NCBI GenBank assembly: GCA_964016885.1
Contig: OZ024755.1
Location: forward strand, 9,362,001-9,426,000
Length of the DNA: 64,000 nt
Reading direction: 5' to 3'
From: Eledone cirrhosa
Taxonomy: Eukaryota
The notes beneath the pieces are model-generated. The model was not told where the DNA came from and ran no database searches. It was given only the letters and a program-made list of their open reading frames with translations. Position numbers and translations under genes: made by a program. The first letter of the stretch is position 1. Every line of letters starts with the position of its first letter. This document shows positions 1-57,362 of the stretch, one piece after another.

Positions 1-2106
1 TGGAGCTACGGGAAATAAAGTGTTTTGCTCAAGGACACAAAGCACCACTGAGAATCGAACTCATGATCTTACGATCTGTATACCCTAACCACTATGCCAC
101 ACGCCTTCATATCAACGTGAAATTAAGGTTTAATGAAATAAAATAGAAAAAAAACTTTAAAATATTATTTTAGAAAGCGTGCGGAAATTTCATAAACTCA
201 AAATATATTATAGAAAACTGGCAAATAACATACTTGTGTGAATACCAGTGTGTGCATGAGTCTTGTGAATGTATGAATTTGTGCATGTGTGTGGTGTAGT
301 GTGGTGTGGTGTGTGTGTGTACGCGCGCATGAGTATGTGTATGTATGAATTTGTGCATATCTGTGTGTGTGTGTGCGTGCTCGAGCATCAGGGAAAACTT
401 CTAAGGGAAAAAACTTTGAAAGAGTTGTTACCCTTAGTAAGCTATTTATATATATTTTTTAAAGTAACGTATCTATGTTGATAGTACCACAGAAGAACTC
501 GATCCCTTTCTCTCTCTCACATACACACACACATACGCACGCACACAGGGTGTCATTCGAAGACGGTGGATATTAGTAAAGCGTTTAATAAGGGACTTTA
601 TTTGTTGTTACAAGCAACGAATTGGCAGAGTCGTTAAAACGTCGGACAGAATGCTTTGCGGTATTCGTATCGACTCGCGGTGTTATAAAAAAAAATCGGG
701 TAAAATACCCCTATGAACAGAAAAAAGTGACCACATTTTTTCCACCTATAGGAGCAATTTACTCGATTTTCTAAGCTATTGTTTATAGTAATCGATTATA
801 TTTGCTGGTATTTCTGCGACGCCTGAGTTTGTTACATTTTTTTTGAAATGATTATTAAAACTGTTTATAAATGAAGCGACAACTAAATTGTAATACAAAA
901 AAAAAAAAACCATCTTTCGACTTAATACGACTGTGGAACTGCTGAATCGGTTTCCCTAGCCCATCGTTATTCAAGATCCTTATATATAAATGCCTTTGTA
1001 CGTCAATGTTTTGAGGAGTTATATCGTCAGGTACTCGGGTTGGGAGGGGCGGAGGAGAAAACTCAGGAAAAAATTAGAGTTTTTCCCCTTAGCTTAGTTA
1101 ATACAGTTTTATGTGAAACAGTTTTACAGCTTTTGGGGAATAGTCTAACCGCGTATGTTGAAAACCGTACTTATAACAACCGTATAAGGTGAATACCCAC
1201 TGTATATAGTTGTAAGAAGAAGAATCATTCTGATTATGTTAGCGTATTGTGAAATCACGCGACCTAATGGTTCACAATCATATGGTCGTGGTTTCAATTC
1301 CCAATTTATGCGATGCACTATGTTTTTGAGAAAAATACTATAATTCAAGTGGCTCCTTCTGCTAGTTGTTGTAGCCGACAGAAAATATCACCAATGGGAA
1401 CATTGTTTCTTCGGCCCGATTTGCTCTCTTTCGGTATTTTGGGGATTTGTTTTTTTTTTTTTTGTTTTTTTTTTACTTCCTTAACTGTATAAAGTCTTGT
1501 TCGATATCTATTTATCCTTAAGAACATATTTATCCTTAAGACCCATGGTGGTAGAACAAGCAGTGAATGGGAAAAAATAAAAATGTAACATCATAAAACT
1601 AATTTTAGGATTGAAATATAATCTTATTAATTAGTGTAGTTAAAATACATTTTAATAAACTCCGATTCACTGCATCAAAAAAGAAAATTTAAATAATTCC
1701 ATTTACGAGGGTAGGCAGAAAAGTTCATAGGTTGACTATGAAGGAGTTATACGAGAGCTGTGAAATCTTACATACATTAATTTCAACTCTTTTTATCAAT
1801 AACTGAATTGTTTCTTTCCAGGGATTATATTGAAAAATAAACCTCATTTGGTCATTCCATAAGAGTATCTTGGTCAGTCTATGAACTTTTCAACTGACCT
1901 TTGTATATTGTAGCGATACTAGAGCTGTGAAATCTTGCATGCATTAATTTCAACTTGTTGGAAAATAAACCTCATAAAATACCACAATGTAATTAGCACA
2001 GTCACAGATCAGGTCAGGTCACTTGCCTGACAAATAAAACAACAAAATAAACAGCAAACATGTGAAAATCATTTATTCTTTTATAATATATGTTTTTGTG
2101 TAATAT

Positions 2107-23574
<21,468 letters not shown>

Positions 23575-31196: not shown

Positions 31197-33758
31197 CTAT
31201 AATTTTGGGGCACTTTTGTCGTTCACCTTCGTCTTTTTAAGTTTAGTTCCCTTCTGGATATCGCTTAGCAACGCAGTTCGATTGGGAGCAGTCATTGGTT
31301 TGCCCTCTATAACAGTTTTCAGCGGTGAAGGCGCCGTTGGTAGCGATATTGGTAACGAAGCTTGGCGCTTAGGAACAAAGTCTGACCCTGTTTTAAGCGA
31401 CACTGGCGTTAACGGTAACAATGGTCGTAAGGGTGACGGCAATAGTGCTGGCGGTGGTGGTGGTGGTGGTGTAGGTACTGGCGGAAGTTTATGTACAACC
31501 TCTATAGCAGGTGGAGTCTTGGGAGGCGGAGGTAAAGTTGACAGAGGGGTAAATAGTTGCTCCGTTTGTGGTTGGTCAGGTTGGAGTTGAGGGCTTTTCA
31601 TAAACAAATCCAGATTCGTCAAGGATGATCGTTTTCTTTTCGTTTTCCTCCCAATGGAAGACCTACAGATGAAAATTAAATATTATATATATATAGAAAG
31701 AGAGGGGGGTATAATAAGAAAGAAAAGATGGCACATACAAGCTAATACGTTTTCTCTATTTTCAAAGGTTTTTGACTTCTGATGAGATTTTATCCCGAAA
31801 ATTAAGGTCGTATTTGAATAAAGAAGAAATAACACAGACAAGGTTTGTTGCTTTCTTTTATCTTAAACCATACCACACCTTTCATACTGTCGCAGCCTTC
31901 GAATTACATACCTTCTTATAAATATATATATATATATGGGGTTTTAGATATAAATTTCCAAAGAAAATTATAATCTAATACATGTTTATATCACTATATA
32001 TGTTGTAATATATAAAAAACATGACTACAGCGTAGTATGGTGACTTACTCTATGTCTTAATCTATAGAAATATAACATCATAGAATAGCAGAGGAGTGAA
32101 GGGGTTTAACATAGTTACTTACTTCATTGGAGTTCCTTTACGTAAATTTCGAAGTTGTTCTTTGAAATTTGGCGGTAATGTTTCCTGAAATAATGTAAAA
32201 TAACATACATACATACATACATACGTAGAGAGAGAGAGAGTGTGTGTGTGCGTGTGCGTGTGTGTGTGATGGTATCCAATGATGTTGACTTGTTCTTTTT
32301 GGTAAATATCATCTTGGTTAAGAGAGTGGGACTGGCTTTGTGCAGTGCCTTTGCTCACTATAAAAGCTTCACGGCACAGGTATTGCTTTATATCTGGAAA
32401 TCTCCCTGCACTTGTCACATGGTACCATGGGCCCAGCACTATGTGTCAATTATTGTCACAGGTGTAGTGTTTGTACCAGAGTTTTCAAGTCGCTGGCTGG
32501 ACTAAAAAGTCACACTCGTTCAGCTCATCGGTAGGGGTTCTCCTACATGGATATAAAGTAGTGGCCGTAGCCGAAAACGAGTTGGCAGCCACCATGTATG
32601 TATGTATGTGTGTGCGTGTTTGATTCCAGAGTTGTGTCGTGGGGTAACCACAGTTAAAAAAGGTAAAGTATAGGGAACTTTATTATATATAAAAATGACT
32701 TCTACGGGACTAGAACTGTTTCATTCCTGATTATTTTATACAAATGAAAGAGTGCAGAGGTCATTTATATATATATTATATATATATATATATTAGTACA
32801 GCATTAACGAAGCTTTAATTTGCGGCCAAGCTAACGAATGCAAATTCGGTCTGTAGCTTTAGCACTCGAATGGGAATAGTACCCCCAGAGTAATAACAAT
32901 ACGTTTAGACAGCTTAGCAAATCAAATATAGCGATCGGCAGTCCAGCCGCATTACCACAGCAACGAAAATACAATATATATATAAAATATGGAAAAAGCA
33001 AATAAGTTAAGAAAAAATCTTTACTTTAATGTCCCTGCTGCAGTTTCCTTAGGAAAATAACGAAACTGAGTAGAGTATCGCGAGAAATCCTAAATCATCA
33101 GGAGACTTTCTCTGTCCAGAAATAAAATTCAAGACAAGAATTCCCAGCCGTTCACCCCACATACAGAGTACTCGATATTTGGGGTAATAGAGTAAGGTTA
33201 TATTATATAGTGTCGGGATCCGACGGCTGAGCTCTTACCGTTTCAATAGCTAGTTCCAGACTAGTTTCATCATCATCATCATCATTTTACGTCCGCTTTT
33301 CCCTGCTTGCAAGGGTGGGACGGGAACTGATTCCGGCTTGATTTCTACAGCTGGATGCCCTTCCTAACACCAACCTCATTTACAGTGAGTGGTGGGTGCT
33401 TTTTTGCCGTGGCGCCTACACGTCCACTTTACATCTAATTTCTACAGGTGAGTAAACTGGAGCAATGTGAAATAACGTGTCTTGCTCAAGGAAACAACAC
33501 ATCACCTGGTCTGAGAATTGAACTCACAACCTTTCGATTGCAAGGCCAATGCTCTAACCACTAAGCCATGTGCCTCCATAAAAAGTTTATATATATATAT
33601 ATATATATATCTAAAAAGTTTTTATATATATATATCTAAAAAGTTTATATATATATATATATATATATATAAAAAGTTTATATATATATATATATATTGT
33701 TATACTTGGGGAGGATCATATTTGTGTAATATTGCTAGAATGAATAATATATATAAAG

Positions 33759-43996: not shown

Positions 43997-44017
43997 CTCC
44001 CTTTTTTAAAAATGGCG
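43997..44017 (+). promoter_or_regulatory. pyrimidine-rich initiator-like run plus YY1-like AAAATGGCG overlapping the DALRD3 start codon
   Basis: CTCCCTTTTTT-AAAAATGGCG, an arrangement typical of housekeeping genes with short 5'UTRs. Confidence 0.35.
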
Positions 44018-47000
44018 CAGCCCATGCACGAGAATTCCGCCGCTGTTTGGAACCAAGTTTTAATGCTTCTATTGGAACATTCACAATTAGAAAATAGTGG
44101 AGACACTTTAAAAAACAATACAGTTATATATCGTAGGAGCAAACGGCTTCGAAATGGTGATGCTATCATCCCACGGGGTCGCTTATGTGAAATATCTACG
44201 GAGGTAAAATTACGTTGATATCATATTTACAATGTTTACAGTTTGTATTACGTCGATATATGTTACTATGTGGCATATAATAACATGAATTGTATCGCAT
44301 ATAATAGGTGACATATAGGTAAGAATTAATCTGCTGGATTTTGTTGTTGGTGATGGTAATTATTGTAGTGTCTTCCCACCACGTGTGTAGTTGAGTAAAC
44401 ACTACTTCTCGAGGCTGTTTGTTTTTAATAGATAGTCTTTATTGACTTGTTTTTATTTTTCTAAATCATATTTATTATATAAATTGTAATTTGAAATGTA
44501 GTCGTCCCAACTTAGTTAACTATAATAATTGTCAACTCGGATAAAGTACCCCGGACGGAAAAAATGGACACACCTCAGACCATTTTTTTCCTTTTTCAGG
44601 GGATATTTTATTAGATAATATCATAAAATTATTACTCATTAATGGGTAGGTAGAATAAGTATTATAGTTTCTTCATCTTCACCCACTTATTCCGAGATGG
44701 TCGTGGAGGAAGAGTCCTCAAACACACCTTCCAGCGTATCATTTGAGAAGAAACGATTTCCAACTGATTGGTACTTATATAATAATAATAATAAAATTAT
44801 TGTGTAAAGCGCTCAGGTGCACTAAAACTCGTCATCTTCGCCCCCTTGCACATTTCTTGCCAAAATTAATCAATATCTCTCAGAAACGTATTATTTAGGA
44901 TAGTTTAGTTAAAGAAAAAAGGTATTTAATATAGTTATTAATAATTATTGATATTTAGGATTTATACAAATGATAAAAATACTATGGAGATTTGTCCAAG
45001 AATTTCTTGCTAATGTATTTTCTTTTGGGACAGGGTGTTAAAAGTTAATACTACCAACGAGATATTGGGTATTCTTAGTAAAGGCCACTCTCCTACAAGC
45101 ATTTGGGTGAGATTCCTAGTATGGGGATAATTCAATACATTGTTGAGTTGTTTCTTACTGCAGTAACCTATGATTCATCAGTTCTCCTCCACCTCAAAGA
45201 TAGGGTGTACCTATTCTAAACCAAACACACACAATATAAATAACATTTTAAAATTCCTAATTATGGAAATTGATTTCTTGCAGACATGGCAGCATATATA
45301 CTCTGAGATTGAGTCCAGAAGCAAAACCTGGTCAATTCCTGTGTCTTGTGGTCAACCTACCAATGAAGCTGTGGCAGTATTTCACCTTCAACGGCCCCGT
45401 GCCTTTCAACATATTTTAAATTCTGTTCAGACACAAGGTGACCAATATGGACACATATCAAATAGGAACTACAACATACTTATCAACAGTAGCCACATTA
45501 ACACACACCAGAACAAAGCTCCTGATCACCTTCAATATGTTCGAGAAATTATTTTATTAGATCACATCATGAAATTGTTAATCATTAATGGGTAGGTACA
45601 ATACTTAAGTAAAAGTTATAGCGCAACTAATCAGAGAGCAAATTGATCTAGACGAAATGCAGTTTGGGTTTGTGTCAGGTAAAAGTACCACAGACGCTCT
45701 TTTCCTTGTACGACAACTACAGGAGAAGTACCTAGCTAAAAGTAAACACCTATACTTAGCTTTTGTTGACTTGGAGAAAGCATTTGACAGAGTCCCCACG
45801 CCATTATCTGGGGTTGATGAATGGCTTGTGAGAGCTATACAAGCCATGTATAAAGAAACAGCGAATATAGTGAAGAATTTAGCGTAAAAGTTGGTGTTCA
45901 TCAGGGCTCTGTCCTTAGCCCTCTCCTATTTATTATTGCCCTTCAGGCTATGACAGAGGAGTTCAAGACCGGCTGCTCATGGGAACTTCTATATGCAGAT
46001 GATCTAACGCTCATAGCTGAATCGATGGATGAACTAGAGAAGAAATTCCAAACATGGAAGCATGGCCTAGAATCAAAAGGCCTTAGTCTAAGACTAAAGT
46101 ATGTAGGAAGGAAAATAGGGCACAGGTCCCCTCTGGGAAATGGCCATGCTCAGTGTGTAGGAAAGGAGTAGGCAGAAATTCCATTTTATGTCCCAAATGC
46201 AAAGTATGGGTGCATAAAAGATGTAGTGGGATAACAAGTAAGCTATCTAAGAACGTAGATTTTATATGTGGCCAGTGCTCAGGTGCAATAAGTTGCAAGC
46301 GCCCACAGGATACTAGCTCCTTCTATTGCCCAGATGGCTCTATAGAAATAGTGTACACCTTCAGTTATCTGGGTGACAAAATCAGCAGTGGTGGAGGGTG
46401 CTCAGAAAGTACAGTAGCTAGAGTCAGAACTGGATGGAAAAAGTTCAGAAAGCTTATACCACTATTAGGCTGCTAAAGGTTTCTCTCTAAAAATAAAAGG
46501 CAGACAGTATGAAGCCTGCATACGAACAGCTATGTTACATGGCAGTGAGACCTGGGCATTGTGTGCAGAGGATCTGTGCAGACTGGAGAGGAACGAAGCA
46601 TGCATGCTCTGCTGGATGTGTAATAGTAATATACGTTAACAGCAAAGCATAAATGAACTAAGTGAGAAATTAGGTATAAGCGGGATCAGATGCTGTTTAC
46701 TCGAGAGAAGACTACGTTGGTATGGTCTCGTGATGCGCATGAAAGACGACAGCTGTATCAAAAATGGCAGGGCGATCAAAATAGACAGAAGTTACGAAGT
46801 AGGCAGACCCAGAAAAACCTGCAACGATTTGATAAATTCCAACCTTAAACACTTACACCTCTCTAACACAATGTCACTGGACCGAGATCTTTGGTGCTAT
46901 GCAGTAATACAGAAAACCCGCCTTGCCTAAGTACAAAGCAAAACCTACAGTCAATAGGCACCTCTTAATCAACTATACACCCCCCTCCTACTACCCCAAC

Positions 47001-50000
47001 TCCCCCATCAACTCCACCCCTTTCTCTGTAAAGTTATGTTGGTACCACAACATCCAGTCCTAAATAAATGAGGTTGTGTAGGTGTCACGACAAAAAATAC
47101 ACAGTCCACGCTGTAATGTGGCAGTGTAGGTAACACGGTAAAAACCTCCCAGTCCACACTGTAAACGTGGTTGGTGTTAGGAAGGGCATCCAGCCGTAGA
47201 AAACCTGCCAGACAGTCCCATACGAGCGAGACGACCAATCTTGCTTCAAGTAGGACAATTCCCGTCTAAACCCATGCTAGCGTGGAAGATAGACGTTAAA
47301 CGATGATGATGATGACTTTCTTCCTCTTTGCCCTCTTTTTCCTGATGGTTGTGGAGGAAGAGTCCTCAAACACTCCTTCCAGCGTGTCCTTTCAGAAGAA
47401 ACCATCTCCAACTGATCCGGTGGGATCCTCAAGCAAGACCTGCCAAGCTAATGGATGTTATCCAACCATCTTGTTCCCAGTAGAGAGAATAACAAATGAG
47501 CTACCCCAGAAGATAACTAGGGAGATGTGCTAAAAAAAGCCACTACAACTCACTGGGCTCATTCTTGCAGATGGCCAACTCCATCCCAATCAAATTATTG
47601 AAATTTGTATACTGGAAACTTTCAATATGAATATGACTTAGTTTTACTGGATCATCATCATTACTATTTTACATTATCACATTCTTAGACCAGATAGGTT
47701 GGATGACCATATCTTGCTCATACATTGGCATGGTTTCTATGGCTGGATGGCATTAACCCTTTAACATTTAAACCAGCCATATCTAGCCAGAATTCTCTCA
47801 TCTCTTTCTGTTCAAACTGACTGTAACCAACTGCTCACACTGATGTTAAGGTATTGTTCTCAAAATAAATAATGTCAAAATCTTGTGGATTCATTATTAT
47901 GTGAAGTAAATCCTTTACTATGAAAATATAATAGTATATATAAAGTAATGTAAATGCTAAAGGGTTAATCATCATCATCATTGTTTAACGTCCTTTTTCC
48001 ACACTTGGGTTAAACATCATCACCTTCTCAATGCCAATTTATATTGCTATGGTTTACAGTTTCTGATTGAAATTCCACTATGTTTACCACTCCTAAAATT
48101 ATGAATCAAACTTCCAATAGTTTTCAAATTTATTCTCTCTCGTATCTTCAGGTACTCTGTAGCAGGAATTATTTCAGATTCTAGTGAATGGAACACAGAT
48201 TTACTTCATACCTTGAATGCAACACATATTTCCCAGAAAATTATTAATACTTCATCTTCATGTGAGTCACCTACAGTACAATCAAGCTTGTTTCAGGCAG
48301 CCCACCAATCCAAATACAGACACAAGTTTTCCACAGATGATTCAGTCACACCAAACAAAGATGATTTTACACAAGACCAAATAATTTTAGATTTAAAAAG
48401 TTACTTAGATTCTGAAGAAGGAAAGTGTGAGAAAGTTAAAGGATTTGACAAAAACCTTCATTTGGTGAAAGGTAAGATCATTTCCCTCGTTTTTTTTTTT
48501 GTTTTGTTTTTTTCTGTTAAATAAATAAATAGGCCTCCACCAGTTTTGACAATGCATGTTTCAGTTGTTTGATCAACAAAACTACCAATATTTATGTTGT
48601 CTCTCTATTATTCAGTCACTGAAGGAGATGATCCAACATTGGTAATGTCACAGGCTGCTAAGCTTGACTTGTGTTCTAATAGTCTACAACAAAAGGTCAG
48701 TAGCCAAAAATATTTCTGTTTGAAGTTGTTGAATGTGTGTTTTTTTTCTCCCTCACATCATTGACGTAGTATTCCTTTAGTAGTGCACCATACAGGTACA
48801 TATTTAGTGTTTAAATTATTTGGCTGATAATCCTTATGAGTTCAATTCCTAAACCAGATGCCACATTGTGTCCTTGAACAAGACAATTTAATATTGTTCC
48901 AGTTGATTCAACTGGAAAACTATACTGGTGCCAAGCTGTACCAGCCTTGGAGAACATCGGTGCCTAAGAAAAAGGAGACTGGCCTACATAGATGACTGCT
49001 GGTCATCTACAAATGATGATGAGTGATGAAAATCTAGCGTAGAAAAGTTAATATAAAATAATAAAAGAAAGAATGAAAAAATATACCCAGTATGCTCTGT
49101 AAAACAGTTGTGCTGGTTCCACAATTAAATGCACCCAATACACTATAAAATGGTAAGTTGGTGCCACAATAAAATACACTCTGTAAAATGGTAGTGCTGG
49201 TGCCATGATAAAATCACCCAGTACATTATAAAGTGGTAGTGTTGATAGCGCCAGAAAATGCACCTGGTACACTCTATAAAGTGGTTGGCATTAGGAAGGG
49301 CATACAGCCATAGAAACCAGGCCAGAATATGGAATGTAAAAGCAAGACATGAGTCTTCAGCCAGTCTAGTATCGGACCATCATAATCTGTCCAACATTTG
49401 CCAGCATAGTAAGTGTACATAAAATGATGATAATGATGAAAATCCCTTCCAGCTAAGAGTGAAAATTTGATATAAGACAGTAAAAGAAAGTGTTTTATTG
49501 GTTGATTCAATAAACAGATAAATGTAATATAAGATTGTTTTGTTATTTCTCCTTTTTAACATAGGAAGAGCTATCTGTTAAGTGTTGTCTTCACTTAGTG
49601 TCATCTTCTGCAACATATGTACAACAACAAGTCCATCTCACTTGGAAAATCTTGTCTCAGAACTGTAAACAATTACAACAGGTAAGTAGGGTTCAGCATG
49701 TGTGTATATATATATATGAGAGAAGCTTCATCAGATTTTTTTACTGTAAAATAGTCTAAATAATAGGGCATATAAGCTCCCTTAATGGATACGATGGACA
49801 TTAGTACCTGCTTCTAACTTTTTAATAAATTTCATATCCTGCTCATTATTTTTAAACACATGTTCGTGTGCGTGTTGTATAAATTTATAAGACTTCAGAC
49901 CAAACTATCTGAAGCCATTCTCCCTGATTTTATAATTAACAAAATAATTGTTTCTACTTTTTGGCACAAGGCCAGCAATTACTCAGTACATTACTGGTAC

Positions 50001-53000
50001 TTTATTTTATCGACCCCATAAGGATGACAGGCAAAGTAAACCTCGGTGGGATTTGAACTCAGACCATAAAGGGCCGTAACTATTTGCTGGAAAACATGGC
50101 GTCCAACCCTCTACCGATACTGCCAATAATAAAAAAAAACAGGGCCTTGATGAAGTTAAAGGGCTGTGTTCTTGGCCATTTTTAAATCTGGCAGAACTCT
50201 TCCCTCTCCAGGTTTGAACACAGTCAATTTCTTCCAGAGAAGGAGGGAATTGACACCAGTACTACACAGTTGTAAGTTAAAACATTGATAATTATGTTGG
50301 TCCCATCCAACCTTCCACAAATGACATTAATCAAGACTAAATATAAAATAGAATTGTTCCACCCTTTTGATACCAAACTGCCTGAAACTGTCTTTGGTTC
50401 TGCAATTCAAAGATGTTTCTTTTAAAATGTTATATATTTATGTGAAAACTTTCCAATCATAATTTTATGTAAGAAGAAGCTCTGTTAAGTTATGTTCCAA
50501 ACACCAGCTTGAGAAGTCCTGCAAAGAACATAAGCCCTGCCCTCCTTGCTTGTCTAACTTATAAACAAAACACAAATAATACTCTGGGATTCATTCCTTT
50601 AAATCTTATTAAAATTAAGTGTTAAAAGTCTACAAAATTAACTGTTTAATAACACAACCATGTTCTTTAACCCTTTAGCATTTACATTACTCTGTATTTA
50701 CTATTGTATTTTCATGGTAAAGGCTTTATCTCACATAATATCAAATCTACAAGATTTTAATATTATTTGTTTTGAGAACAAAGCCTTAATGTCAGTATGA
50801 GTGGCCAGTTACAGCTAGTTTGAACAGAAAGAGGTGAGAGAATTCAAGCTGGATGTAGCCAGTTTAAGTAGATAACAATCTAATTTCCCTTTTGCAATAG
50901 TTTTGATGTGTCAAACATATATAACTTTGATAACTTTTAGCCAGTATTGGCCCAGGCCATGTCTAACTTAGTAGCACCTAACAGAACAATTTCTCCTCAA
51001 AATATAAGATATAATGTAAATATAATATAACACATTTAATATAATGTATTCTAAATGTAATATAATATAATGTATATGTAAATAATCTTATTTTCCCTTC
51101 AAGGCCCATCTTGTTGTTGGTGGTATCACTAAGAGAAAAACTGTCCAAGGATCTATTGATTGTGTAACAGCTAAAGAATACATCAGGTAATTATATACAC
51201 ATAAGTGTGTGTCTATATATATATACAATATATACACGTGTGTGTCTATATATATATACAATTTATGCACATAAGTGTATGTCTATATATATATATATAT
51301 AATATCTACACATGTATCTGTGTGTCTGTTCTTACTTTATGGATATTTCCTGTCTGTCAGCAAGAGTTTTAATGTTTTACACCAGTATGTATATTTTTCT
51401 GTGTGTGTTTGGGTGTGTATGGTTTTCTCTCTCTACGTGTTTCTTGGTTTTGTGTGTGTGCATGTGAGTTACAACACCCTAACCATGCGGCTATGTTCCT
51501 TCACTTTCATTAACATATTTCTAATGAAAGATGCTGCCTGTTATATTCAATTACAAGATATGTATTATAATGTTCTCTGAGTTCAAATCCTGCTTTGGCC
51601 AACTTTGCCTTTCATCCTTTCAAGCATGGCTTGGGTGAATTTTCTTGTGCCACCACTACATTCACTACCCCTAGTGAAGTTGCCTGTATCACTTTAACCC
51701 TTTTGCATTTAAACCAGCTGTATCCAGCCAGAATTCTCTCACCTCTCTCTGTTTAAACCAGCTGTAATTGACCACTCATACTAATGTTAAAGTATTGTTC
51801 TCAAAATTAATAACATCGAAATCTCATAGATTTGATATTATGTGAGGTAAAACCTTTACCGTGAAAATATGATAGTAAATATAGAGTAATGTAAATGTTA
51901 AAGGGTTAATTTCTGAGTGACTGTTCTCTTAGATGAGTTGCCTTTATTATAACTTCATGGCTACCTCTTGTAGTCTTATTTCTTGACTATTGTTTTATGT
52001 TGTGTTTAGGCTTCGTAAGATTCAGATGGAGAATGCTGCAGCCTTGAAATATGGGGAGGAATTAAACAAAGGTTGGTCACATTAGTCTCTCTTGATTTTG
52101 TTGTTGTTGCCTTTTCTTTTATTCTGTTACTTATTTCAGTAAAGGGTGCATGATTTAGTGGTTAGGAGGTTAGGCTTGTTATTGTAAAGTTATGAGTTCA
52201 ATTCCCAGAAATAGTGGCATGTTATGTCCTTGAGCAAGACATTATTTCACGTTGCTCCAGTCCACTCGGCTGGAAAAAAGGAGTTGCCATGACACTGGTG
52301 CTTCATCATTATTAAGATGTTGCTTGACAATGGTTCTTACAATAAATTATGATGGAAGGTTTAAATCTTTTTAAATACTTTAAAAAGATATAGCTTTATA
52401 TCATAGAACCAGGGGCAGTTTGATGTAGGCTGGTATCGAGAGTTAAATATTAGACAATAAGCTAAATGAAAATAAAATTTTCTTGCCTATTTCTCTTTAC
52501 AGGTATTGAATGGGACCGAATGATACAGAATCTGACCGAAGCCTGTATCAAGTTTGAAATCCTTGGCACTAACTGCCGAAACCCAGTGAGAATAACTTCT
52601 ACATTTTATAATGCCATCATTATAATTCTTATCAACATCAGCTTAAAACAACCCAAGGAGTTTTTTGTTTTTCTTTTAGTGGGATGGCTGTTTTGTTTTG
52701 TTTTTATAAAATTTTGCCTGCTATAGTCTCGGTCCCCCTTTAATATTTTAATCTTGCATCCTTTCATTTCTGATTTCAATATTTTTAGATAGAATAATTG
52801 TCAATGGTTGATTTCTTTTTATTCAACATAATATAAATAATTATTTTAACAGTCATCAAAGGGCTGGAAGTATTGACCCTTCAGTTGTATAAAAGACATG
52901 ATGGCAACCTCTCTAGTGCTGGTGTCATGATAAAATGCACTCGGTAGAATGTGGAACCATATGTAAGAAAGATTTGAATCCCCAGGCCTGTCTGTAATAA

Positions 53001-56000
53001 TCATCACCGTTTAATGTCTATTTCCTATCCTTGCATAGGTTAGATGTGTTGTTGCATACTGAGGCTAGACTGATCAGTTGACCACATCTTGCTTGACATT
53101 CCATTTTCAACTTTTATTTCTATGGCTGGATGCCCTTTCTAATGCCAACCACTACACCATGTACAAGGTGCATTTTATCATGGCATTAGCACTACCACCT
53201 TAAAAAGCTCACAATGATATATACTGTTGTAACACTTTTAGTCTCCTCTTACAACACACTGGTTCAACAGCTCACAATATACACACCATGATGGAGGTGC
53301 ATGACTTAGTGGTTAGAGCATTGGCCTTGCAATCGAAAGGTTGTGAGTTCAATTCTCAGACCGGATGATGGTGTGCCCTTGTGTAAGACACTTTATTTCA
53401 CATTGCTCCAGTTTACTCAGCTGTAGAAATGAGATGATAGGGACTGGGGTCCCTATCATTCCACTGCAAAGTGGTCGTGGAGGTGCCACTGCAAAAAAGC
53501 ACCCAGCCCACACTGTAAAGTGGACGTGTAGGCACCATGGAAAAAAAGCACCCAGCACTCACTGTAAATGAGGTTGGTGTTAGGAAAGGCATCCAGCTGT
53601 AGAAATCAAGTCAGAATCAGTTCCCATCCCACCCTTGCAAGCAGGGAAAAGCAGACGTAAAATGATGATGATGATGATGATGATACATACTGTCATTTAA
53701 ACCAGCTGTATCTGGCCAGAATTTTCTCGCCTCTTTCTCTTCAAACTGGCCACTCATACTGATGTTAAGGTATTGTTCTCTAAATGAATAATATCAAAAG
53801 CTCATAGATTCAATATTATTGTTTCTACTTTTGGCACAAGGCCAGCAATTATCCCAGTGCATTACTGGTACTCCATTTTATCAACCCCGTAAGGATGAAA
53901 GGCAAAGTTAGCCTCGGCGGAATTTGAACTCAGACTGTAAAGGGGCGTAACTCTATGCTGCAATGATTCAATATTATGCAAGATAATTATGTAAGGTAAA
54001 GCCTTTACCTTGAAAATATAATAGTACATATAGAGTAATGTAAATGCTAAAGAGTAAGGATGAAACAAAAATTATATTTTCCTTCACCAGCTCAAGTTGG
54101 ACTTGTCTGAATCATCCAAAGATATGGAAAACCATGTTGACAATTGTTCTGGTCCTTTTGTCATGTATAACTGTGCTCGACTGGCCATGTTGTTTCAGAA
54201 ATTTGAGCAAGATGTCAAAAAAGGTGAATGTGCTTTTATTACTTATCTATATGTATGTGTTGTTGTTGTTAATGTTGGTGTTGTTGCTACTGTTATTGTC
54301 ATTGTTGTTATTTACCATACTATAATAATTCTCCACTCCAGGTATTTACCCCAAGTTACCCAGTTTGTCCCAGTGTGATTTCAGTCTCCTAAAACTTGAT
54401 GTAAGTCTCGGTCATTAGACCTTTATTTGTATGTTATTGCTGTTGTTGTCAGTCCTGTAGTACATAGATGGTATATTGGTGGTATATAGTTAGTATATGG
54501 GTGGTATATAGGTAATATATTAGTGGTATATAGGTAATATATTAGTGGTATATTGGTGGTATATAGATGGATCAGTCCTGTAGTACATAGATGGTATATT
54601 GGTGGTATATAGTTAGTATACAGGTGGTATATAGGTAATATATTAGTGGTATATTGGTGGTATATAGTTAATATATTAGTGGTATATTGGTGGTATATAG
54701 GTAATATATTAGTGGTATATTGGTGGTATATAGGTAATATATTAGTGGTATATTGGTGGTACATAGATGGATCATAGAAACACTGGGTCTTTAATGATCT
54801 TATAATTTACAAAATATTATATTACTGTTAAATGTATAGTTTGAGTTATCTAAAATACCAAAAACTTAAAACAAATGCAACAGGTTTCTATTCATTGTTT
54901 CATGTCTTATCTTTTCAGGAAGAATGGACACTGCTTTATAATTTTGTGGAACCATATCCCAGTATAATACAGAGCACTGTCCCTTCTATAGGGGACAATT
55001 TGCACTTAAATATTCAAATACATAAAGTAAGTAATATAACAGTTTTATTAATAATGTTTTTTTTTCTTTTTTGTCTCTAAAGTGGTAGTAATGATGCCAT
55101 GATGAAGTATACCCATGTCTCACTTTACAGAGTGAACTAGGAACCATTAACTCTTAATGTCTTACATCACATTAAAAATTAAACCACTTTAGCAAGACTT
55201 CCTTGGAATATATAGATTAGCACTATGACTATGTCACACTAAAAATTAAACCATATTAAGGTAAAGGCTTTACCTTACATAATTATCTTGCATAATATTG
55301 AATCATTGCAGCATAGAGTTACGCCCCTTTACAGTCTGAGTTCAAATTCCGCCGAGGCTAACTTTGCCTTTCATCCTTACGGGGTTGATAAAATGGAGTA
55401 CCAGTAATGCACTGGGATAATTGCTGGCCTTGTGCCAAAAGTAGAAACAATAATATTGAATCTATGAGCTTTTGATATTATTCATTTAGAGAACAATACC
55501 TTAACATCAGTATGAGTGGCCAATTTGAAGAGAAAGAGGCGAGAAAATTCTGGCCAGATACAGCTGGTTTAAATGACAGTATGTATCATCATCATCATCA
55601 TCATCATTTTACGTCCGCTTTTCCCTGCTTGCAAGGGTGGGACGGGAACTGATTCTGACTTGATTTCTACAGCTGGATGCCTTTCCTAACACCAATATTA
55701 GCAAGACTTGGAAAGTATAAAGCATCACATAAAAAATTAAAATCTTTTACTTTAGATCACTACAAATTTTCACAAACATCTGTTCACTAATACAGATATA
55801 ATAAATATTCAAATTAACAAACCCATGAATAGATATTTTCTGCTTAATCATTACAAGATGTTACAGCTATAGGGTTAAATTGTGAATTACTAAGACTAAA
55901 GTAATAATTATAAAAATACTAATAACCAACTAAACTAAATAGTGTTAAAACTGTTTTATCTCTGAAAAATATAAAATAGAGGGTTGTCTGAAAAGTTTAT

Positions 56001-56720
56001 TAGGTTGACCAAGATACTCTCATGGACTGATCAAATGAGGTTTATGTTTCAACTTAGTCCCTGGAAAGAAACACTTCAGTTATTGATAAAGAGTTGAAAT
56101 TAATGCATGCAAGATTTCACAGCTCTAGCATCACTCCTTCATGGTCAGCCTATGAACTTTTCAACTTACTCTCTTAGCATAAATTCCTGAGAACAGTTAG
56201 CTTTATCTGAAATAAAACAAATATGAATGTTAAATTCTTTACTTCCAGGTTGCCGGCTTTCTGGTGTCATTAAGTCACTGTTTAAGTTCCTACTACAGTC
56301 GAGTACATGTTCTTGGGGTAAGTAAACTGTTTTATATCAATTTGTTTAATACCTAAGAGACCAGTTTGTAGCAAGGAACTGCAACAAAAGGTTTTAACCT
56401 TTAGCATTTACATTACTCTATATTTACTATTGTATTTTCATGGTAAAGGTTTTACCTCATATAATATCGAATCTTTGAGATTTTTATGGTATTTATTTTG
56501 AGAACAATACCTTAGTATGAGTGGCCGGTTACAGCTGGCCTTGTGCCTAAATCAGAAACCATTATTATTATTATTATTATTATTATTGTTATTATTTTAG
56601 GAACCACGTCGACACCTTCTACCTGTGATGTATGCTCGGTTACATCTTCTTGCTGCTGTACATCAAGTTATGTTAAATGGCCTTCAACTGCTCAACATTG
56701 AACCAGCTTCACAACTGTAA
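44012..56720 (+). CDS. DALRD3: DALR anticodon-binding domain-containing protein 3, 13 coding exons, ~577 aa
   Basis: Exons: 44012-44203, 45284-45591, 48152-48471, 48616-48695, 49565-49681, 51104-51186, 52010-52071, 52503-52585, 54091-54223, 54342-54400, 54919-55026, 56249-56317, 56601-56720 (1734 nt, GT-AG, phases consistent). Diagnostic motifs FVMYNCARLAMLF, EEWTLLYNF and SSYYSRVHVLGEPRRHLLPVMYARLHLL. AATAAA at 57535-57540. Confidence 0.9.
45605..47315 (+). mobile_element. 5'-truncated RTE LINE (RT, Cys/His finger, 3'UTR, (GAT)n tail) in DALRD3 intron 2
   Basis: QFGFVSGKSTTDALF, AFVDLEKAFDRVP, GVHQGSVLSPLLF, LLYADDL, CPKCKVWVHKRC..CGQC, FSYLG and RLRWYG..GRPRKT, with frameshifts and stops. 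Confidence 0.9.
53293..53685 (+). mobile_element. tRNA-derived CORE-like SINE with RTE-type 3' tail (representative copy)
   Basis: A/B boxes (TTAGTGGTTAGAG, GAGTTCAATTC), a CORE-like block TG(T)CCTTG.G.AAGACACTTTATTTCACATTGCTCCAG and a (GAT)n tail. Relatives at 1-110, 4568-4800, 17425-17600, 20833-21045, 21725-21990, 23825-24040, 33267-33558, 42950-43240, 48800-49440, 52143-52300 and 61290-61460. Confidence 0.75.
53574..55695. repeat. 438-bp inverted duplication (53574-54011 vs 55258-55695)
   Basis: Reverse-complement match with 3 mismatches seen by eye. Confidence 0.95.
54451..54772. repeat. intronic compound tandem repeat (TGGTATAT-based units)
   Basis: Repeated ATATTAGTGGTATATTGGTGGTATATAGGTA with a ~122-bp higher-order duplication. 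Confidence 0.85.
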
Positions 56721-56770: not shown

Positions 56771-57362
56771 CTCTTACTGTCTATCTGTTTGTATATATGT
56801 ACCTCTATCTTACTGTCTATCTGTGTGTATATATGTACCTCTATCTTACTGTCTATCTGTTTGTATATATGTACCTCTATCTTACTGTCTATCTGTTTGT
56901 ATATATGTACCTCTATCTTACTGTCTATCTGTGTGTATATATGTACCTCTATCTTACTGTCTATCTGTGTGTATATATGTACCTCTATCTTACTGTCTAT
57001 CTCTGTGTGTATATGTACCTCTATCTTACTGTCTATCTGTTTGTATATATGTACCTCTATCTTACTGTCTATTTGTGTGGGTATATGTACCTCTATCTTA
57101 CTGTCTATCTGTTTGTATATATGTACCTCTATCTTACTGTCTATCTGTGTGTGTATATGTACCTCTATCTTACTGTCTATCTGTGTGTGTATATGTACCT
57201 CTATCTTACTGTCTATCTGTTTGTATATATGTACCTCTATCTTACTGTCTATCTGTGTGTGTATATGTACCTCTATCTTACTGTCTATCTGTGTGTGTAT
57301 ATGTACCTCTATCTTACTGTCTATCTGTGTGTATATATGTACCTCTATCTTACTGTCTATCA
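56771..57362 (+). repeat. 36-bp minisatellite, ~16 copies, in the DALRD3 3'UTR
   Basis: Unit CTTACTGTCTATCTGT(T/G)TGT(A/G)TATATGTACCTCTAT. Confidence 0.95.

Follow-up and report, generated by a model that had tools for sequence, protein, structure and literature searches.

The window, a stretch of 64,000 nt on contig C15 of the 3.0-Gb genome of Eledone cirrhosa, contains a near-perfect inverted pair inside a DALRD3-like gene, and the second arm of this pair (arm B) is best read as a young, local templated inverted insertion that would have arisen through repair or template switching. With one gain of 442 bases, three in-frame exons would in this way have come to lie within a near-perfect stem, an arrangement also found in a mouse Tbxt allele in which exon skipping dominates. 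Overall, we consider it probable, though by no means certain, that the locus represents a repair-born reverse copy whose stem in the pre-mRNA is likely hyper-edited and largely neutral.

The inverted pair and its host gene

Arm B (55258..55695, minus strand) is a reverse copy of arm A (53574..54011, plus strand). The arms are 438 nt long and identical at 435/438 positions, and the three mismatches (53626/55643, 53653/55616 and 53746/55523) are all transitions; the reverse-complement arms with three mismatches that had been described in a sequence-only reading were thus reproduced exactly. A spacing of 1246 nt separates the arms, and no longer inverted pair was found within the window. Arm A lies in intron 8 and ends 79 nt upstream of the exon 9 acceptor, while arm B lies in intron 11 and starts 231 nt downstream of the exon 11 donor.

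The host gene (44012..56720, plus strand) consists of 13 coding exons with canonical splice sites in an open model and encodes 577 amino acids. Its protein matches P0001 (Octopus sinensis DALRD3 at NCBI) over the full length with 75.6% identity and shows 60.4% and 47.4% identity to P0002 (Argonauta hians) and P0003, respectively. In a Pfam search, all three relatives passed the cut-off of PF05746 (DALR_1), the DALR domain of P0001 being located at 440-577, and none of the three passed the cut-off of PF00750, a synthetase catalytic domain; four window exons searched singly gave no match at cut-off. The full-length match to P0001 and the DALR_1 hits of the relatives support the DALRD3 identity that had been proposed for the gene, which we accordingly call DALRD3-like. 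According to a study from 2020, no invertebrate DALRD3 homologue had been identified by then (PMC7237682); a full-length DALRD3-like gene is present in this octopod, and databases now carry named cephalopod DALRD3.

Three exons are enclosed by the arms, namely exon 9 (54091..54223, plus strand, 133 nt, phase 0 to 1), which contains the FVMYNCARL motif, exon 10 (54342..54400, plus strand, 59 nt, phase 1 to 0) and exon 11 (54919..55026, plus strand, 108 nt, phase 0 to 0). They have AG/GT ends, add up to 300 nt and both start and end in phase 0. Splice ends and phases therefore agree with the earlier description, and the joints are also present in a spliced contig of run X4. Phase 0 applies to 7 of the 12 introns of the gene. 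Tandem arrays were observed at two positions, a minisatellite of 11/33 nt with an internal duplication of 123 nt in intron 10 (54449-54766) and an array with 16 copies of a 36-nt unit directly past the stop codon (56772-57361).

The copied block is a composite of dispersed elements. A SINE-like repeat with an (ATG)n tail (53291..53685, plus strand), which matches 33267-33579 as well as dispersed copies, contributed its 3' part alone to arm B. It is followed by a degenerate, unstranded MITE-like element (53693..54055), intact copies of which (e.g. 51694-51909) bear terminal inverted repeats. This element is split by a nested, truncated high-copy SINE-like element (53820..53964, minus strand, with the orientation taken from a longer copy) that is flanked by a 13-bp duplication (53807-53819 / 53965-53977). 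ARAGORN returned no match on either SINE-like piece. Each of the three components has between 31 and 233 copies in a 1.66-Mb sample, the highest number belonging to the nested element, and a genome search with 6850 candidates, 40 of which were scored, recovered the whole block at the two arms only, a lower bound on its copy number. Hence, the block is indeed composite in the sense first suggested, its parts being dispersed and the whole being seen at both arms only among these scored candidates.

Origin of arm B

The direction of copying can be deduced from the edges of the arms. At arm A, the SINE-like repeat extends beyond the left edge and the MITE-like element beyond the right edge. Both edges are therefore located mid-element, which means that the copied block begins and stops inside elements. 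Arm B is bounded by two copies of the hexamer ATATTA (55253..55258 and 55695..55700, both plus strand), each of which shares one base with the arm. As a direct repeat of at least 6 bases flanks 4.6% of 20,000 random 438-nt intervals, the case for a target duplication leans mainly on an older paralogue of the insertion site 80 nt upstream (55173..55200, plus strand), which fits one ATATTA-like hexamer only. This paralogue shows what would be the empty state of the site, and its single hexamer indicates that the target was duplicated. The direct repeat that had been noted round arm B is thus present, and its reading as a duplication is backed mainly by the empty-site paralogue. Target duplication and source edges together characterise arm B as an insertion of 436 + 6 bases, and copying is shown, at the level of the sequence, to have run from arm A to arm B. 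The insertion site sits within an older, degenerate tandem duplication of approximately 70 nt (55165-55258 and 55696-55745).

Since the composite was recovered only at the arms among the scored candidates and its edges fall mid-element, a templated local duplication is favoured over a single transposition, in line with the sequence-only reading. We also considered the arms as terminal inverted repeats of one DNA transposon and rejected this candidate, as there is no outer duplication, ATATTA surrounds arm B only and host exons lie between the arms. Both arms share variants at 53587 and 53611, a combination present in 0/30 sampled family copies, and a 39-mer with both private variants occurs at 11 genomic places, two of which are the arms.

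In the repair or template-switch reading, an end in intron 11 that had broken or stalled would have used the opposite strand of intron 8, 1.25 kb off, as its priming site. Approximately 436 nt would have been copied, and rejoining a few bases back would have duplicated ATATTA, probably all within one repair or template-switch event. Polymerase-theta and fork-switch models account for templated inverted insertions at breaks. The exact microhomology at the junctions amounts to 1 nt per side; imperfect microhomology comprises 5 nt on the left (ATATT, p ~0.036) and 4 nt on the right (ACCA, p ~0.035), values that were obtained against 5000 random source ends with a few bases' slack and that are weak, the windows having been chosen post hoc.

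Alternatively, arm B could stem from the reverse transcription of intron 8 RNA at a staggered nick, as in LINE-type insertion, possibly with an ADAR-edited RNA as template. We regard this as improbable. While the short target duplication (6 bp including the two shared bases), the A/T-rich site and the SINE-rich genome would be in line with such a retro-insertion, neither a poly(A) stretch nor an element tail is found at the RNA 3' end of the insert. Editing of the template is suggested by two of the three differences, at which the sense strand has A in arm A but G in arm B, and a distant copy (L172, which coincides with L201) agrees with arm A at both positions, 53626 and 53653. However, G is the family state at these positions (26/30 and 21/30 copies, respectively), and it is also found at 53626 in 8/9 other copies bearing the private variants of the arms, several of which diverge before 53653. 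Furthermore, both positions are CpG, which makes CpG decay in arm A the simpler explanation, and the third difference is C to T. An edited-RNA template, which had been raised since all three mismatches are A.C, is consequently made unlikely by the family polarity, and two CpG losses in arm A together with one change in arm B appear to be the simplest reading. The agreement of L172 (C4:251907138-251907229) with arm A, to which it is identical over a 92-nt tail and 89% identical over the whole SINE, may be due to chance CpG decay, gene conversion or kinship. In the sense RNA duplex, all three arm differences form A.C mismatches, which is expected in 1 of 8 cases by chance for transitions; such mismatches are preferred ADAR sites.

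The junctions of arm B were recovered in sequencing runs. Two contigs of run X1 (54732-55286 and 55667-56032) are mismatch-free and enter arm B by 29 nt each, at a depth of 6-7 that equals the adjacent unique DNA; a k-mer assembly is expected to halt just inside a high-copy repeat. The 555-nt left-junction contig of X1 is shared by X2 and X3, and no contig break at 55258 was detected in X1-X3. These unbroken contigs suggest that both haplotypes carry arm B and that the allele, being homozygous, is tolerated. An assembly artefact would have to produce the left junction in three independently built contig sets and the right one in X1, without mismatch and at single-copy depth, and the three arm differences can be explained as mutations. 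Although X1-X3 are DNA-type runs of one sample, perhaps the assembled individual, and the overlap of 29 nt falls just below the 31-nt bridging rule of the tool used, we consider an artefact highly unlikely. The contig from run X5 of a relative ends at 55176, short of the insertion site, and RAD run X6 shows zero cover of the unique parts of the locus.

To place the pair in its genomic context, we sampled 16 blocks of 100 kb (1.6 Mb), two of which adjoin the window while the others were chosen by round coordinates, and excluded low-complexity arms. Inverted pairs of at least 200 nt and at least 97% identity within 5 kb were found at 21 loci in 12 of the 16 blocks. At 400 nt and 98%, four loci were found, just one with a spacer of 300-5000 nt. 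Near-perfect palindromes (arms of at least 100 nt, at least 97% identity, spacer below 100 nt) were counted 31 times. For 26 of them, arm copies exist elsewhere, which identifies most of these palindromes as hairpin transposon families; whole copies were found for 13 and no copy in the sample for five. We therefore rejected frequent template switching as the explanation for the short-spacer excess of inverted pairs, given the arm copies (26/31) and whole copies (13/31) elsewhere. Six of 15 longer-spaced inverted pairs appear to be local, and a target duplication round one arm was detected at 0/16 other loci (at least 150 nt, 97%, spacer 300-5000). Long duplex-forming pairs are thus common and mostly transposon-related, while the one-arm, target-duplicated anatomy is uncommon. 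Two further structures were encountered on contig C15, a palindrome with 775-nt arms and a 12-nt spacer (C15:9288975-9290536, in L043) and an inverted array with arms of up to 1690 nt at 99.9% and a period of ~422 nt (C15:25080966-25085384, L139).

Predicted stem, editing and splicing

The introns of the DALRD3-like gene contain 13 older inverted matches of at least 60 nt, including weaker ones round exons 9-12, and arms A and B form the top inverted match between any two introns. The duplex of the two arms was predicted at -823.6 kcal/mol; for comparison, four older pairs within the gene reached -134.6 to -255.5 kcal/mol. Together with the transcription of the gene that is evident from the X4 contig, this prediction upholds the proposed long, stable pre-mRNA stem. 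Before splicing, the RNA would thus form a long stem round exons 9-11, which is a likely ADAR substrate. Young repeats have been described as the principal targets of ADAR in animals generally, with octopus among the species surveyed (PMC9989829), and octopus editing falls mostly in introns and 3'UTRs (PMC9699675). In the RNA data, the signal over the arms is swamped by repeat copies, and neither a contig of intronic RNA from the locus nor any edited site was detected.

Splicing could be followed in run X4 (88 million letters), which derives from a different sample and was recognised as spliced RNA from its contig. The run yielded one spliced contig of 1618 nt with a depth of 7, which is identical to the genome, includes exons 9-11 with the joints 54223-54342 and 54400-54919, and has loose ends that continue into exons 8 and 12. 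Two exon bins show exactly the depth of this contig. No other joint was found in 54062-55280 in X4, a run of unspecified library type, tissue and arm-B genotype, at a depth of 7 and in contigs, which drop rare forms. Circles would be missing if the library had been prepared by poly(A) selection. The bin 56220-56311 has a depth of 6.02 compared to ~4.8 expected from the mRNA contig; the DNA runs are also raised at this position, and a repeat adjoins, which makes this excess uninformative. In the X4 sample, exons 9-11 are normally included, and neither a skipped form nor a circle is dominant. The circRNA and the skipped isoform that had been predicted from the sequence did not appear in this shallow run, as its single contig includes exons 9-11 and there is no back-splice joint.

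We favour the view that the stem, once formed in the pre-mRNA, would be edited and thereby loosened by ADAR, that skipped or circular products would stay minor and that normal splicing is likely the main output. A more active role, in which the stem acts as a splicing switch and causes a substantial in-frame skip of exons 9-11 and/or a 300-nt circRNA in some tissues, with lowered functional DALRD3, is conceivable, although we judge it to be unlikely. The skip would delete amino acids 416-515 and thus most of the DALR domain. As human DALRD3 without this domain fails to restore tRNA-Arg m3C (PMC7237682), the skipped product is likely to have lost its function. In mouse Tbxt, perfect reverse-complementary pairs lead to more exon skipping than Alu pairs do (PMC10901737), and reverse matches promote skipping as well as back-splicing in C. 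elegans (PMC8330042). In the DALRD3-like gene, no two introns offer a better inverted match, the stem is twice as long as that of the engineered mouse allele Tbxt-insRCS2 and merely 79 nt away from the acceptor, and the product would be in frame without a premature stop. On the other hand, an in-frame skip that was common in the X4 sample would be expected to yield a stable, detectable transcript, whereas the inclusion form alone was assembled and the exon bins match the depth of that contig. The unbroken insertion site in X1-X3 also speaks for a homozygous and tolerated allele, and octopus circRNAs are few (PMC9699675).

If closed as a circle, exons 9-11 would provide 100 stop-free codons with three Met. 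Among the contiguous blocks of internal exons in this gene, 25/66 are divisible by three, all of these (25/25) are stop-free when closed, and 21/25 contain an AUG. An endless ORF is thus expected approximately four times in ten, and its presence is no sign of selection. The emphasis that had been placed on exactly 300 nt and an endless ORF is correct as to the facts, but the two are not independent features, since they follow from frame symmetry. Heavy coleoid editing had been named alongside the proposed circle. In PMC9699675, the octopus set comprised no more than 296 high-confidence circRNAs, at low level, and their scarcity was linked to ADAR, so that heavy editing counts against the circle rather than for it. 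DALRD3 had no match in the readable supplements of that paper (data files S1-S4, possibly circRNA-relevant, covered in part). Rolling-circle translation of a 300-nt circle into multimers of a DALR fragment seems very remote to us. The stop-free frame of 100 codons with three Met would permit it, there are precedents in size (circEGFR with 249 nt and circTau with 288 nt), and initiation on circTau was ADAR-promoted in reporters (PMC11724312). Nevertheless, the X4 contig set contains no circle, every frame-symmetric block is stop-free and the allele is very young.

It may be speculated, with considerable doubt, that the locus is a natural twin of Tbxt-insRCS2 and owes its silence to the melting of the stem by coleoid ADAR, in which case the in-frame skip and the 300-nt circle would emerge once ADAR activity is lost. 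If this is true, heavy editing would buffer splicing against thousands of young inverted pairs in the genome, and a conserved gene would tolerate a duplex that is expected to loop out three of its exons. Arm B offers a clean natural allele for the comparison of carriers and non-carriers, and the system could be used to test whether RNA editing in cephalopods keeps loop-out skipping and back-splicing in check, the explanation that PMC9699675 offers for the scarcity of octopus circRNAs.

Comparison with known systems

The closest counterpart is Tbxt-insRCS2, in which a 220-bp reverse copy of a neighbouring intron was inserted at a CRISPR cut in mouse Tbxt and exon skipping became the major isoform (Xia et al. 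2024, PMC10901737). Both loci carry a stretch of intron that was reverse-copied into a neighbouring intron across one or more exons, with a near-perfect stem and an in-frame skip as the possible product. Tbxt-insRCS2 was made at a DNA break, and a broken or stalled end is also the proposed starting point of arm B. In contrast to the mouse allele, arm B is natural, measures 438 instead of 220 bp, spans three exons together with its source and occurs in a heavily editing animal. Skipping is dominant in Tbxt-insRCS2, whereas one run of the DALRD3-like locus contained inclusion alone. Loop-out by inverted Alu elements, as described for the AluY/AluSx1 pair of hominoid TBXT (PMC10901737, PMC13019027), similarly involves a new intronic insert that pairs with an older reverse copy. 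However, the TBXT pair goes back to two independent transpositions with an identity of 228/297, while arms A and B would represent one templated composite with 435/438.

The complementary flanks near circularisable exons resemble circRNA loci with reverse-complementary matches (PMC8330042); at the DALRD3-like locus, the circle is a candidate. Likewise, the length divisible by three and the stop-free frame are shared with circEGFR and circTau 12-10 (PMC11724312); those circles were detected, whereas a DALRD3-like circle is merely possible.

Biogenesis of circRNAs driven by reverse-complementary matches was reportedly treated by Ivanov in 2015. With regard to the DNA event, templated inverted insertions at DNA breaks are known from yeast, where local foldbacks mostly comprise 5-34 bp (PMC11724301). 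Arm B likewise reproduces neighbouring DNA in inverted orientation, with weak microhomology-like matches at its junctions, and it differs from the yeast foldbacks in its 436 bp, its source 1.25 kb away and its duplicated target. In the literature covered, which included few subscription papers, we found no report of this locus or of one of its kind in octopus, nor of a templated insertion with a target duplication of this kind. Every component of the locus has a known counterpart, and the DNA event is of an ordinary kind.
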